Source: Octopus vulgaris
Taxonomy: Eukaryota
Length of the DNA: 64,000 nucleotides
Assembly: GCA_951406725.2 (NCBI GenBank)
Contig: OX597827.1
Coordinates: 23,684,001-23,748,000 of the forward strand
Direction: 5' to 3'
The notes under the pieces were generated by a model. It did not search any database. It saw nothing but the letters and a program-made list of their open reading frames with translations, and was not told the DNA's origin. A program made the position numbers and the translations under genes. Shown here piece after piece: positions 650 to 52,900 of this stretch. Numbering within the stretch: position 1 is the stretch's first letter; every line of letters begins with the position of its first letter.

Positions 650-695
650 ACCACAACGTTTCGGCTGATTTACTCTCCAGCCTTCATCAGGTGTC
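650..695 (-). ncRNA. Minimal type I hammerhead ribozyme (Penelope-type)
   Basis: Minus strand: GACAC-CUGAUGA-A-GGCUG gagaguaaau CAGCC-GAAAC-GUU|GUGGU. Loopless palindromic stem III (ACGU). Decayed inverted copy at 1611-1657 (+). Confidence 0.75.
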
Positions 696-3600
696 CTGAG
701 GAAATTTTGAGCCCAACCCTGGGTTCTCATTCCCAAAGTAATTTTTTTTTTGCTGGTGTTATTATTATTATTATTATTATTGAGTGAGAGAGCAGTGCAT
801 ACCATCAAAATGACATTGGGGTAAAATATACGAAGCCCAGTATACCCATCATGACTACCCGTCTGATAAGGGTACACCAGGCACATGCATCACAACTAAA
901 TGTGTGCGACATGGTGATCTCATATCAAGATAAACAGCGCATGACCTTGCAGATGGGGCCCAGTTAGAATTTTCTTCTGGTCGGGTAACCCATCCCACTC
1001 AAAAGGTCCCTGCTTAAGGGTTGTTTAAGGATGTTGAATGAAACACCCGTGTTTCCAAAGGTGAATTATTCAAACCCCAAAGAATTCCTCTCAACACATG
1101 GCTATGATGCTCCCCCACTACTTCTGCTCATGATCAGAGATGCACATATCGTCAGCCACTAAGGGACATGGTCAACTGGTTAAGGTCAAACAACTGACAA
1201 GCAAATCTGTGGTGTTGAGCAGAATATTTGCTGTAGCCCATCTTTTATACCAAGGCAAAACAATGTACATGATATCACTTCCAATCAAAGATTAGAAGCC
1301 ATGAGTAGAAGCCATGAGAGCCACTGTCTGGTACTGCATCAAAGCATATATTATTATTATTATTATTATTATTATTATTATTATTATTATTATTATTATC
1401 ATTATTATTATCATTATTATTATTATTATCATTATTATTATTATTTTTTCAAGGCACTGCCTGGAATTGAACTCAGAATCCTGTGGTTCAATTCCGAGTT
1501 CAATTCCAGGCAGTGCCTTAAATAAATAAATAATAATAATAATAACAATAACACCAGCAAAAAAATACCTTAGGAATGAGAACCCAGGGCTGGGTTCAAA
1601 ATTCCGCCATGACACCTGATGAAGGCTTGGAGAGTAAATCAGCCGAACCATTGTGATAACAACAAACAAGATGAGAACACATGTCCATTCATTGTAAATA
1701 ATGTAAATAATGTGTTCTCATTTATTTCCTAATTTTATTCTTAGGCTCCACCGATAGTCCATTGATTGATCAATCTCGGTATTTCTATCTTTATTCATCT
1801 TTATTCATTGTCATCACTCATACATGTACACTACTGGCACAAGATATTACATGGCCATGTTGGTGGTAACTAAAGTGACATCCCCTGCCAGGTTAGTCGG
1901 GTAAGGAGAGGTGCTTTGCAATTACTTGGTTTCAGGACTACTGCTGCCACATGGCCATACTGGGGCACCACCTTGAAGGGTTTCAGTCGAACAAATCAAC
2001 CCCAGCACTTACTTTTGTTTTAAGTCTGGTAGTTATTCTATTGGTCTCTATTGTTGAACTGCTAGGTTATGGAGATGTAAAGAAATTAATACGGGTGGCC
2101 AAGCAGTGGGGGTAGAGACAAACAAACAAACACACACACACACACACACACACACATACACACACACACACATACTCATGTATGTGTGTGTGTGTATGAT
2201 GGGTGTCCACAGTTTCTGTCTACTAAATCCACCCATAAGGCATTTATTGCCCAAGGTGCCATGCAGTGGAACTGAACCTGGAACTATGTGGTCATGGAGC
2301 AAATTTCTTAACCACACAGTCGATTCTATGGTTATATATTCACACACACACACACAGACCATAACCAACGTTGTGGGTCTGAGTTTAACTGTGCTGTGAT
2401 TTAGAGAAACCCATCCAGTATTTAGTGTCAGACCAGAATATTCTTTGTGTATAGGATGTGGGGGTGGGGGACACCTGGTTCCAGGTGAATGGTATGCTCA
2501 GACTGTGACAATTCAATCATCACCATCACCTCCACTGCTACCATCACATCGCCATCATCGTCGCCATCATTATCATTATCACATTCATCACCACCACCAC
2601 CACCACCATCATACAACTACTTTTACTTCCATTACACTCCCACACACACACACACACTACCATCATCACTACCATTAATACCATCAGCAGCAGAACCATA
2701 ATTACCATCACCACCATTACCACCCATCATTACCTCTTCCGCCATGCATCAATTTATGAAGTGAATCCTTCCTTAAAAGCCAAATGCCACACTGATGACG
2801 CCATTAGTCAACCACACACACACACACTTATACATACATAAACACACTCATACTTACAGAGAACACATACACACACACAATCACAGACACACACACACAC
2901 ACACGTACTCAAACATACTTTACACTTTTATTTTCACACAAATATTTATAAACACATTACACATATCTTAATGTATGCACATAGACACACACTCACACAC
3001 ACACATGTACTCAAAACATGTTTTACACTTTTATTTTCCCATGAATAAACACATTACACATCTTAATACATGCACATAGACACACACACAAACACACACA
3101 CACACACACACGCACACATACAATATGTACACGCATTCTTTTATTCGTTTCAGTCATTTGATTGCGGCCATGCTGGAGCACTGCTTTTTAATCTAATAAA
3201 TCAACCCCAGGATTTATTCTTTGTAAGCCTAGTACTTATTCTGTCTGTCTCTTTTGTCAAACCACTAAGTTACGGGAGTTTAAGCACACCAATATCAGTT
3301 GTCAAGTAATGGTGGGGGGACAAACACAGACACACAAATACATACATACGTACATTTATATATCACCACCACCACCACCACCATGACTGACCAGGCTGTC
3401 AGATGTTGCTACACATCGCTGGTCACAATGCGCTTCGCATTGTTTTAGCCTTCAAATGATGCCACCCTGCTGGCTAAGCAAGCAGGCCAACAGAAGAAAG
3501 ATGAGAGAAAGTTGTGGCAAAAGAGTACAGCAGGGATCTCCACCATCCCCTATCAGAGCCTCATGGAGCTTTAGGTGTTTCGCTCAATAAACACTCACAA

Positions 3601-49576: not shown

Positions 49577-49986
49577 GGATCTTTTCGGTTTGAACGGCAG
49601 TTTTTAACATAATTTCTAGGTAACTAAAAAATTTTAAACTTCGTATACTGGTAGAATGTGTTTATAAAACATCTTTTTCTCTTGGCTTTATTGAGAAAAT
49701 TCTATAGTTTGTAAGATATTTGTTGTTTTTTTCTTCAATTTCTGCAATTTCAACCAATCACTGACGCCTATTGAGGTAAACAACATTCTGTGCAGTATGA
49801 ATATCTCCGTCGTTTAAGAAACAGATTTAGTTTATTTACATTTGTGAAGAAAAAAAGTTACCCTTCCCCCCACCCCTAACCCTAAACGAGATTGAAATGC
49901 AATAGATCGATACTAGAGTCATAATTATGGGTATTAATTTCATATGACACTGCTAGAAAAAACTGCCGTTCAAACCGAAAAGATCC
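49577..49986. mobile_element. Same MITE, opposite orientation
   Basis: Same TIR; TSD CATTTCCC on both sides. Confidence 0.9.
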
Positions 49987-52900
49987 CATTTCCCCACTAA
50001 AGGTTTCAGCTTCACCTTTTAATCAAGATTTCAACTTGGTAGGTAGGGAAAAACGCTTGCCCAAGTTCTATAACTCTTCCTGCCCGAATCTTATTGTCTG
50101 TCACTAGTTATCTTCTCTTACTTCACTCACCCGCAATATTCACTAAGAGAAATCGACGACAGATATTTACAAAGAAAGTCGTTAACTACAGTTTCCGTCT
50201 GCCAAATTTCACGCTGTATCGGCCAACCCATGGCTAAAGCACAAAATACTCAATGGACTGCAAAGGAGCGCAACAGCAGCAGCAGCCATTCAAGAATCTC
50301 TACCTGGAGATCTCCATTTCCAGCGACTTCGAGGGCCACCTCCCAGTGGTATCGGACGTCAATGAAGAGCCCTCGACTACAAGACGACTAAAGTTTTTTT
50401 TTTTTTCCAAGGTCTGGGGTCTCCCGCTCCTAAGCCCTAGACCATTACCTAATCACCCTTACCCGTCTTGTTCCTTAACAACAACAACAACAGCAGCAGC
50501 AGCAGTAGTAGTAGTAGTAGCAGCAGCAGTAGTAGTGGTGGTGGTGGTGGTGGTGGCGGCGGCGGCAGCAGCAGCAGCAGTAGTAGTAGTAGTAGTAGTA
50601 GTACGTGTTTTAAAATATACGTTTTCAAGTTTTTGCGTATTAACAACTGAACAGTACAAGGGAGACAATTTGCTAACGACTTTTAAAAAATTGTGTTTCT
50701 CTGGTTGGCATAAAATTATCATTTCCTCCGCCATCATGCAACCCTCGGGCAACACTAGTGATGGACAGGTTTAAGTATTAAGATAACATACATTCATGCA
50801 TAAATACGTACATATATACATACACACGTCTGCATACCCTCACTAGATACATGCTAAAACCATTGAGCATGAAATCTAGATTTAGATGCATCATGTCTCA
50901 CCCAGAAGACTGCATCTTTATTGTGAAGGATCAGAGGATGATTGTTCCTAAATATTTCTTCAATGAAAGAGATAAGGATACCTCTTAGCCTCAAGTTGGT
51001 GATACAAAATAACTCTTGATTGTACCAGTCTGATTGACATTACCAACATCTTCGGCAGCTGTCCAGAAACGCCTTTGCAGTATTCCATTCTTGTGAAACT
51101 TAATATTAATAAATACCTATTTTTTTTCTTTCAATGGCCATACCAAAGTCGTGACAGAACCTAAATATAATCGCATGCTTAAAAATGAGGAATACTGGTT
51201 GGATATTCCTTTCAAAAATCAGCAAAGCTGGTGAAAACACAATATGGCCTCACATTCTGTTGGACGGAAAAAATTGTTTTGAGAGTCATTATCATCCAAA
51301 CAATGTCCAATTTCCTATTAAAACATGCCTGGTCATGTGGAAATATTACCTTACTTTGAAACTGGTGAGGGTTGATGACAGGAGAGGCATCGAGCTAAGA
51401 AACTCTTTCCAACCTTTGCAAGCATGGAATGGAATTGTGGACAGTTGATGGATAATGATGATGATACTTGTATATATGGGGGAAAGCCTCTCCTTTAGAC
51501 ATTATGCATTGAAAATCAGACCATTTTCTAGTTTCATTTTATTTACAAATTTTATTTTCTCCATATTTTTGTATGGGTTCTTTAAGTGTGTTTGGAACTG
51601 TAAAGTTCGGGCAGAGCTAATGCAACTGGGTTAGACATTACTACTGTATTCCCCCAACACACACACACAGCTAAAGACCATCATACCAGGATGAAACCAT
51701 TAATCAATATGAAGACAGCAAACAGGCAGAATCGTTGCACGCCAGACAAAATGCTTAGAGGCATTACATCTAACTTTACGCTACGAGTTCAAATACCACC
51801 AAGGTCGACTTTGCCTTTCATCCTTTCAAAGTTAATAAAATAAATACCAGCTGTGTACTGGGGTCCGTGTAATCCACTAAGCTCGTCCCCCGAAAAGCTG
51901 GCTTTGTGCCAAAACTTGAAACCAGTATGAGATAGTGAATCTGCCCAATATCAAGCATTATAAACTTTTACTCTACAAACGAACTGTTTTGAGTTTGCAC
52001 TCATCAATCCTTTTCATACCAACCTGGCTGAAACCTGCTCTGGCTCCATAGTACAAATGTTTTCTTTTCATAAGTTTTGAATTAAAATCTTCCACCAAAC
52101 CTTGGTCACAGTTTATGTTCCTTACACTAGCTGAATGATAACGAAGTTGTTTTACTAAATTCTTTGTTATATTTAAAATTAATTGAATAAATATGGTAAC
52201 AAAAGGGTTAATGAAATTATCGTTGCTGTTTAAAAGACACTTTCTCAGCACTGTTGATGGCAAATACATACATACGTATGTATGTACGTATGTGTTTGCC
52301 ATCAGTAGTTCTGAGAAAGTATTTTTTAAACAGCAAAAGTAATTTCATTGGATGCAGACGTACATACTCACACACACACACATTTTTTTTTCTTTCTCTG
52401 TTTTCTTCGATCTCTCTCAGTTTTTTTCCTCTCAACCCTTTCTGTTTATGAGCTTTTGCTCAAAACATCAAAGACTTTCCCATTCTTCCTGAGCATTAAA
52501 CTAACACACCTGCTTGTTGTTCTTCCACCTGTCTTCGTCTTTTGTTTTCTGTAAACTTGAACTATATATAACTGTGAGTGTGTGTGTGTGTGTGTGTGTG
52601 TATACATATTCTGTAAATAATAATATTTTATAAGCTTAAAGCTTACAGCGATCACCGCGCAATGACTAAAGAAAATAGTCCAATAATGGGACATATAAGC
52701 CCTCAGCAGAAAAAAGCGGGTTTTCCCATACGTGTGGGACTCGAACTCACACTGCTACTATTTAGGCAACCAAGTGTGCTACACTAGCAAACCAACCTAC
52801 TTATATATATATATATATAATGGGGGTGAGAAATTGAATATTAATTTAATTAACATCAATTTAAAACCAGTAGCCTAGCATAAAGAAAAATCTGAAAATT

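Follow-up and report, generated by a model that had tools for sequence, protein, structure and literature searches.

Results

We analysed 64,000 nt of the Octopus vulgaris genome (GenBank assembly GCA_951406725.2, contig OX597827.1, positions 23,684,001 to 23,748,000; hereafter the window), in which an initial annotation had noticed about twelve type I hammerhead ribozyme (HHR) motifs from seven to eight unrelated families. All twelve sites proved to be members of repeat families with a palindromic stem III, six of them intact and six decayed or cut short, and we count eight families rather than seven, named A to H (Table 1). The six palindromes named at the time are all present in the window, AAUAUU and ACACGUGU in broken copies. 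The hosts had been described as foldbacks without an open reading frame (ORF). The foldback shape applies to C, F, and H and partly to A and B, not to D, E, and G; the lack of ORFs is true inside the window, but H, F, and G are tied to ORFs of Penelope-like elements (PLEs) elsewhere in the genome.

Table 1. Hammerhead-bearing features of the window, with element types as assigned from sequence
Feature	Position	Strand	Description
Family A copy with a 30-nt 3′ extension	585..781	-	Intact minimal HHR at 652-693, core CUGAUGA plus an extra A, palindrome ACGU
Family A copy with tRNA-like head remnant and (AAT)n	1440..1720	+	Faces the 650- copy head-to-head; decayed HHR at 1613-1655
Family B, permuted and internally deleted copy of a 360-nt tandem retrozyme	10660..11113	-	Between TA-rich tracts; short inverted piece at 11035-11113
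Family B, intact HHR	10756-10801	-	U4C core, U.U stem II base, palindrome ACCAUGGU
Family C foldback	11800..12080	-	Decayed HHR at 11951-12001; family core GUGAACA (G3-C8 swap), palindrome AAUAUU
Family D, 5′-truncated copy of a 433-nt tandem retrozyme with a (TA)n end	12810..13145	-	Intact HHR at 12997-13066, palindrome ACCUGCAGGU
Family E copy (~80% identity to relatives)	14091..14431	+	Decayed HHR at 14109-14192 with a long stem II; ACAUAUGU is the family palindrome
Family F foldback, 3′ end of a Hydra-like PLE	20620..21031	.	HHR remnant on the + arm at 20858-20946, without the core start; left arm has a 3′ tail
Family G, decayed HHR	31408..31445	+	
Family G copy, 3′ end of a Neptune-type PLE	32790..32968	+	Between (TA)n tracts; intact minimal HHR at 32816-32853, palindrome ACGU
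Family G, intact HHR core	32816-32853	+	A6U core CUGUUGA plus an extra A
Family H inverted insertion, 3′ end of a Hydra-clade PLE	44172..44752	.	Arms 44285-44491 and 44546-44752 (207 nt, 100% complementary), tail 44172-44284
Family H, intact HHRs	44321-44411, 44626-44716	-, +	Palindrome ACAAUUGU
Family G-related decayed HHR	52437..52475	+	

For motif detection, we used a relaxed type I descriptor with stem I of at least 3 bp, the core, stem II of at least 4 bp (or 3 bp on a U.U base), and GAA followed by a perfect palindrome and H. It returned the six intact motifs of the window, whereas shuffled sequence gave a mean of 0.0 (whole window, 200 shuffles) or 0.005 (500-b blocks, 200 shuffles); a strict type I descriptor gave two motifs against 0.015 in shuffles. 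The relaxed descriptor (long stem II, core variants, and U.U base) was widened after the window motifs were known, so tests on a random sample are the fairer control. This sample comprised 80 stretches at round coordinates, chosen blind (799,900 b), the first 60 of which also served for a palindrome test. It held 31 motifs, compared with 0-1 per shuffle (20 shuffles). When the palindrome was not demanded (60 stretches), 26 of 34 matches still had a perfect one, against 0 of 22 matches from 30 shuffles; seven of the 34 stem from a single array. The palindromic stem III/loop 3 took 17 different sequences among the motifs. Thus, the hammerhead observation is confirmed as real and well above chance, in the window and in the random sample alike. 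None of the motifs in the window and 13 further loci (142,808 b) reached the Rfam hammerhead gathering score, and the 150 E-value matches listed of 295, mostly microsatellite microRNA, included no hammerhead at that score.

The order stem I, CUGANGA, stem II, GAAA, stem III, UH, stem I is found in the six intact window copies and, taking the commonest state, in all eight families. Among the broken sites, the palindrome position at 1611+ (family A) reads CCAT, AAA stands in place of GAA at 11951- (family C) with stem II damaged, palindrome and stems are damaged at 14106+ (family E), the copy at 20858+ (family F) breaks off within the first core strand, and 31407+ and 52437+ have mutations in the GAAA strand. 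At each of these six sites, the commonest state of 24-29 genome copies restores the motif feature by feature.

These copies come from searches of the genome itself (2.8 Gb, 227 contigs), which gave 141-2,456 first-look candidates per family, 40 of them scored; the 24-29 tallied were those most similar to the window copy and are no random sample, and loci were read for the best 30 of each family. The whole motif passed the descriptor in 29/29 copies of B, 25/28 of H, 23/29 of D, 19/29 of G, 14/29 of C, 8/28 of F, 7/29 of A, and 2/24 of E, and these rates drop with family age. In families with lower rates, the commonest states were the core GUGAACA in C (26/29), the core CUGAAGA (17/24) and the palindrome (12/24) in E, and the core CUGAUGA (22/28) and the palindrome (16/28) in F.

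Three families could be followed into coding sequence. In H, the shared sequence extends 1.25 kb upstream into a GIY-YIG C-terminus with CxCX5C (Pfam E 7e-4, below the cut-off), with ORF links at loci L268, L353, and L361. A genome search with this C-terminal piece returned 18,319 first-look candidates, and the 150 scored included several open frames near 980 aa. A 984-aa ORF of an H sister (L350) had no Pfam match; it carries all the Hydra-clade marks checked: RWK, DKT, YRDD, CxCX5C, CxxC/CxH, and the (TA)n target. In G, locus L355 shows a reverse transcriptase (RT) and endonuclease (EN) region between two hammerheads, L354 has an RVT_1 match, and both have the Neptune-type linker CX2-5CxxC before GIY-YIG; both reading regions contain stops or frameshifts. 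Family F follows a CxCX5C ORF by ~770 nt at L358, an EN-side fragment that shows, among the Hydra marks, CxCX5C and the C-terminal cysteines only. The proposed check for upstream RT plus GIY-YIG ORFs thus succeeded for H, G, and, as an EN-side fragment, F; in 25-30 loci per family, read to 1.5 kb upstream, it found none for A, C, and E. Judged by these sequence features, H and F are 5′-truncated ends of Hydra-clade PLEs and G is that of a Neptune-type PLE, its clade assigned by motifs alone.

Long open PLE frames are present in the genome, both 781-aa Neptune-type and ~980-aa Hydra-type. Loci L269, L270, and L271 hold intact Neptune-type ORFs of 771-781 aa with many near-identical copies, a second open frame upstream, and a U3-A8 hammerhead ~0.9 kb downstream. 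A foldback in TA-rich flanks at window positions 24541-24744 matches the extreme 3′ end of the 781-aa family (L271) and stops short of that hammerhead. The Hydra-type ORFs at L350, L351, L268, and L358 contain long stretches rich in asparagine in the RT-EN interval, resembling the N-rich inserts described for rotifer Penelopes. Two candidate links were discarded: G-like matches beside the Neptune ORFs L243/L245 lie on the wrong strand, and a 3.1-kb period of H pairs (C8) is not a full-length PLE but a local triplication of flank plus element. There, at L061-L062 (G000:C8:61479446-61488692), a 3.1-kb unit with an H inverted pair is triplicated at 99.4% identity.

Families B and D have no ORF. 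B forms head-to-tail monomers with a 359-360-nt period and D head-to-tail dimers of a 433-nt monomer, and the copies of each are 98-99% identical genome-wide. In their best 30 loci no PLE protein match lies in line, and the upstream sequence wraps into the same monomer, not into an ORF. In the B motif, a 2-nt bulge follows stem I, which is 6 bp long, and stem II is short; a sister array, 78% identical, has a canonical core and keeps the 359-nt period. Circular folds, compared with 60 shuffles each, gave z scores of -6.1 (B), -4.6 (D), and -4.7 (B sister). The insertion ends of both families lie in (TA)n tracts, which mask target-site duplications. B and D fit non-LTR retrozymes, with ORF-less tandem monomers of 360 and 433 nt that lie in the ~150-450-nt range defining this kind and have one type I hammerhead each. 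None of the sequencing data sets listed as containing family B is recorded as RNA. Four sequencing runs of presumed RNA origin each contained a family B contig returning by 360 bases (390-391 nt long in three of the four); contigs closing at the monomer period fit circles, tandem RNA, or DNA alike, and therefore give no evidence of RNA or of a circle.

The element copies have fixed 3′ ends and ragged 5′ ends. Counted from the predicted cleavage site, terminal copies of B (n = 26) end at +173-178 (12) or +218-222 (11), with 3 others; those of D (n = 26) at +204 (22) or +263-267 (4); and those of H (n = 35) at +41-43 (20) or +154-160 (15). Nearly all run into (TA)n. Two-ended insertions combined one short and one long end in 25 of 25 cases (B 8/8, D 8/8, and H 9/9), a count covering 30 loci per family and insertions with two recognisable outward ends within 2.6 kb; other-ended insertions, including the B copy of the window, are excluded. 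The 5′ truncation, the inverted truncated copy, and the tail at one end were counted for H, B, and D and seen by eye for A, C, and F.

An inverted 5′-truncated copy with a tail at one end is a known PLE arrangement (PMC8557442; PMC3846280), and the PLE tail made in vitro is the stretch between two RT start sites (PMC11167929). The two-ended tail signature matches both. Therefore, the foldback is an insertion product, and B and D bear a PLE mark without an ORF. We found no earlier report of retrozymes sharing the PLE two-end tail and (TA)n signature in the available portions of the PLE and retrozyme literature.

One D insertion involves a host gene. At L361:311-3100 (G000:C4:98494001-98502000), an intronless, 5′-truncated FXR1/FMR1 frame of 683 codons is joined to a family D dimer ending in (TA)n. 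The FXR1 parent lies on another contig (G000:C19:53216248-53261961), where 16 matching pieces with 97-100% identity are spread over 46 kb. The junction has a 3-nt microhomology within the last coding exon, and that part of the parent has no D motif. This single case would be read most simply as a switch of template, with copying passing from D RNA to the mRNA. A fusion between an intronless FXR1 retrocopy and a retrozyme was not reported in the available portions of the literature. A host FXR1 sequence matches a cluster named Octopus sinensis at 99% identity and a cuttlefish at 89-92%, which places the source in the genus Octopus. A Hydra PLE is found in the same (TA)n tract as the retrocopy.

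Families A, C, and E most likely share the probable PLE route of the other five families. Of 42 copies of A, 24 show the same arrangement (window 1440-1550; L066, L068, L069, L079, and L083): a B-box-bearing segment, whose boxes we take to be tRNA-like, and (AAT)n lie upstream; ARAGORN found no tRNA in six family A loci with this head. Family A may be a tRNA-headed, SINE-like (short interspersed element) composite with a PLE-type hammerhead end. In family C, the shared sequence begins ~15-25 nt before stem I in nearly all copies. A Hydra-like ORF 3.2 kb upstream of an E copy was rejected as its partner, as it carries its own hammerhead and belongs to another family. Another family A foldback, with sequence 3′ of the core only, is found at window positions 6532-6656.

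Hammerhead positions are given in the standard numbering. The core is canonical in A, D, E, F, and H and variant in B, C, and G. U4C occurs in B, in a Neptune-type family, and in a G relative; A6U occurs in G, in the same register as its canonical-core relatives; and the C core GUGAACA is a natural G3-C8. The exact 35-nt family C pattern (core plus perfect stem II) has 1,114 genome copies, against 0 for the reversed control, so that the G3-C8 core is present at least 1,114 times. The core conservation and stem covariation proposed as a check were both observed. The Watson-Crick 3-8 pair occurs as C-G, U-A, and G-C, and both sides of the palindrome change together between relatives (ACAAUUGU in H vs. 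ACGAUCGU in a 70%-identical relative). Stem I also covaries between related families (CUUU/AAAG vs. GUUU/AAAC), and B and its 78%-identical sister differ by paired changes too. Core position 7 is free, being U, C, or A within G and varying between families. An unpaired base after A9 together with G10.1-C11.1 is present in A, C, and G; the other families have G.U (E and H), A-U (D), U-A (F), or U.U (B).

Natural U3-A8, A6C, and U4C cores have been reported, and G3-C8 only as an engineered variant, as far as the available parts of the sources go. In the same literature, which did not include Lunse et al. 2017, where they may well be listed, we found no report of natural G3-C8 or of family-fixed U4C or A6U. 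With the same exception, no report of hammerheads or retrozymes in octopus or other cephalopods was found, and a term search for 'octopus' had no hit in one supplementary file of PMC4209133.

Folding energies per strand favour the double over the monomer hammerhead in all 10 motifs with a drawable monomer stem III. None could be drawn for two ACGU motifs: with a 4-nt palindrome (A and G), stem III is not closable alone. The octopus motifs are predicted to cleave as dimers. Inverted pairs put their motifs on opposite strands, so the foldback cannot make a dimer, and a partner in cis is supplied by tandem arrays only. Read-through of the H insertion in the window is predicted to give a 207-bp duplex that buries the sense motif.

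In the random sample, the density was 39 intact motifs per Mb, which corresponds to 2.5 in a stretch of 64 kb. Extrapolated from 31 in 800 kb, the genome would hold ~1.1e5 motifs (bootstrap 0.56-1.75e5). Compared with the 2.5 expected, the six motifs of the window give P 0.04 (Poisson) or 0.10 (resampling): the hammerhead density is genome-wide and the window is mildly rich. All loci examined together contain 192 distinct motif contexts in 23 sequence clusters. Published totals, from the available parts of the sources, are ~4,000 for coelacanth, 9,000 for Xenopus, >6,000 in 16 families for Acropora, ~5,000 for mussel, and 126,247 for axolotl, with its 28-Gb genome. Since descriptors differ between studies, any density ranking across genomes is soft.

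Discussion

Families H, F, G, B, and D belong to kinds already described, namely the terminal hammerheads of PLEs and the non-LTR retrozymes. The initial annotation had seen a radiation of non-coding elements, which we do not retain. H, F, and G are the 5′-truncated ends of ORF-bearing PLEs from two known clades, and therefore the diversity is old PLE diversity and not one non-coding radiation. Its description of a very dense, diverse set of ribozyme-bearing PLE derivatives holds for the PLE-type hammerheads, the many families, and the high density, with the corrections that three families are ordinary PLE ends and that the density is not specific to the window.

The comparisons that follow refer to the parts of the cited sources that were available. 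The octopus motifs are like the minimal type I hammerheads of metazoan PLEs (Cervera and de la Pena 2014, PMC4209133) in the order of parts, the palindromic 15.2-16.2/loop 3, the extra unpaired base after A9 (A, C, and G), the U3-A8 variant, and the occurrence of thousands of solo copies, close opposite-strand pairs, and many families per genome. They differ in palindromes of up to 10-12 nt, branched 50-80-nt stems II (D, E, F, and H), and G3-C8, U4C, and A6U fixed in whole families. H and F resemble the Hydra-clade, endonuclease-bearing (EN+) PLEs (Craig et al. 2021, PMC8557442) in the C-terminal GIY-YIG, CxCX5C, CxxC plus CxH near the end, RWK and DKT (in the H sister), the hammerhead, and the (TA)n target, whereas the octopus elements are very abundant and have a 1.2-kb 3′ untranslated region and tails of ~80-116 nt instead of 30-40. 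G is like Neptune-clade EN+ PLEs in the CX2-5CxxC linker, YIG, DKG, YIDD, and a hammerhead on both sides of the ORF; it differs in its A6U core, and motifs alone assign it to this clade.

B and D share with the non-LTR retrozymes of coral, mussel, axolotl, and Xenopus (PMC7229834; bioRxiv 10.64898/2026.07.22.740005) the ORF-less tandem monomers, the single type I hammerhead in each, and the strong predicted self-pairing as circles, and axolotl HHR_Amex2 has a U.U stem II base, as in B. Unlike the published retrozymes, B carries U4C, the D motif combines a long stem II with a 10-nt palindrome, and both are known here from DNA. Moreover, the PLE insertion signature is directly visible in them (two 3′ ends, an inverted 5′-truncated arm, and the (TA)n target), whereas both sources argued the retrozyme-PLE link from co-occurrence and similarity of pseudo-long terminal repeats (pLTRs). 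PAc (Poseidon) of Anolis, studied in vitro (Frangieh et al. 2024, PMC11167929), is alike in the two RT start sites that lead to the tail, the two-strand nicking of AT-rich DNA, and the uncut RNA template; C3G/G8C, an engineered rescue there, is the natural state of family C here.

We consider it likely that the type I motifs at the 3′ ends of PLEs (H, F, and G) and in ORF-less tandem retrozymes (B and D) were copied into (TA)n by a Penelope enzyme, and that they would cut only as dimers paired through stem III. Following the published PAc biochemistry, an RT/GIY-YIG protein would nick both strands of an AT-rich target, and cDNA started at two internal sites of the RNA would produce the tail and the foldback. 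The template would be uncut RNA, because sequence from both sides of the cleavage site is present in the copies. Where transcripts are tandem, two hammerheads would exchange stem III strands and cleave to monomers, which may circularise, probably with protein help. Most solo genomic copies would be inert by-products that decay.

Several points weigh against this proposal. Few copies of the older families pass the descriptor (A, E, and F), the F-ORF link comes from one locus (L358), and A, C, and E lack a linked RT/GIY-YIG ORF in the 25-30 loci read for each, which extend 1.5 kb upstream. G10.1-C11.1 is kept in 3 of 8 families only, and changes at A6 and U4 reduce in vitro activity (PMC3088659). 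Homodimer prediction gives the full double hammerhead as the optimum for just 1 of 12 motifs, and the optimum includes a complete intermolecular stem III in 6 of 12. A same-strand partner within 5 kb exists for only 7 of the 31 sampled motifs, all from one array. The PLE hammerheads studied so far are weak in cleavage: PAc cleavage needs protein and is dispensable for insertion in vitro (PMC11167929), and eight of nine Xenopus retrozyme dimers failed to cleave in published work.

Another role, unlikely in our view, is that hammerhead-shaped folds are kept mainly as structural signals (for protein binding, template dimerisation, or placement of the RT start) and that cleavage in vivo is rare or absent. 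In its favour, families with A6U, U4C, or G3-C8 reach thousands of first-look candidates or exact copies, and every inserted copy derives from uncut RNA. PAc with a mutated hammerhead still inserts normally in vitro, no RNA-seq reads end at the cut site (PMC11167929), and Naiads are described as spreading without canonical hammerheads. However, the 3-8 pair is swapped compensatorily in three states with GAAA kept, and H17 is G only in a few decayed copies across the 23 sequence clusters. The kept 3-8 pair, GAAA, and H17 point to the demands of a catalytic fold rather than of a plain hairpin.

Less probable again is that B and D are pLTR pieces of unsampled autonomous PLEs, with arrays grown at the DNA level by unequal crossover, and not RNA-circle retrozymes. 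This would agree with the proposal of Li et al. 2026, in the part available, that retrozymes derive from pLTRs and amplify locally, and only the best 30 loci per family were read. Yet the upstream sequence in those loci re-enters the monomer with no in-line PLE protein match, the arrays sit within single insertions with short/long (TA)n junctions, and the 78%-identical B sister keeps both the 359-nt period and a strong circular fold.

It is very improbable that the foldbacks are DNA transposons resembling miniature inverted-repeat transposable elements (MITEs), with terminal inverted repeats and an incidental motif. Long, near-perfect inverted arms and TA-rich flanks are what such elements have, but here the arm length varies by copy, the ends are asymmetric (short vs. 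long), many copies are one-armed, and H, F, and G run into RT/GIY-YIG ORFs. Finally, chance matching of a short motif in DNA rich in AT and repeats has a negligible probability: the descriptor was relaxed after the window was seen, but the shuffle controls, the family-wide conservation, and the 1,114 exact copies vs. 0 refute it.

Beyond copying by a Penelope enzyme and cleavage as dimers, a wider reading is tentative, and we give it slightly less than an even chance. Retrozymes would be mobilised in trans by (TA)n-targeting Hydra or Neptune enzymes through two-site, two-strand initiation, and the same machinery would make host-mRNA retrocopies such as that of FXR1 through template jumps between retrozyme RNA and an mRNA. 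The octopus would harbour one of the densest hammerhead populations known, and the natural G3-C8, U4C, and A6U cores would be functional and previously undescribed.

The results bear on two open questions: which enzyme moves animal retrozymes and what purpose PLE hammerheads serve. One genome holds young retrozymes (98-99% identical) with the PLE signature together with long Hydra-/Neptune-type ORFs, all with the same (TA)n target. The added value lies in the motif census, the family-fixed core variants, and the sequence-level evidence for retrozyme insertion by the PLE route. Moreover, natural core variants that spread widely offer a test of whether cleavage matters. The 2026 repeat annotation of O. 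vulgaris (PMC13282606) uses the terms 'ribozyme' and 'hammerhead' 0 times in its main text, as available; the families may be catalogued under other names in its repeat library. Some octopus repeats filed as SINEs, MITEs, or unknown may be PLE ends, and the PLE machinery may make retrogenes.

Other features of the window

A 25-nt unit is repeated in tandem in 15 copies at 8310-8688. At 15362-15982, inverted arms of ~90 nt beside (TA)n enclose a tRNA-like SINE, with no match in the other loci examined, and a tRNA-like sequence at 40111-40181 (-) scores 37.5 bits against the Rfam gathering score of 29.

A host coding exon at 43331-43978 (+) encodes a charged, coiled-coil-like protein and is followed by a GT donor; it had no Pfam match and has two unnamed homologues with 72-74% identity. 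The family H insertion starts ~190 b into the intron after this exon, where the pre-mRNA would fold into a duplex of 207 bp that may serve as an editing substrate.

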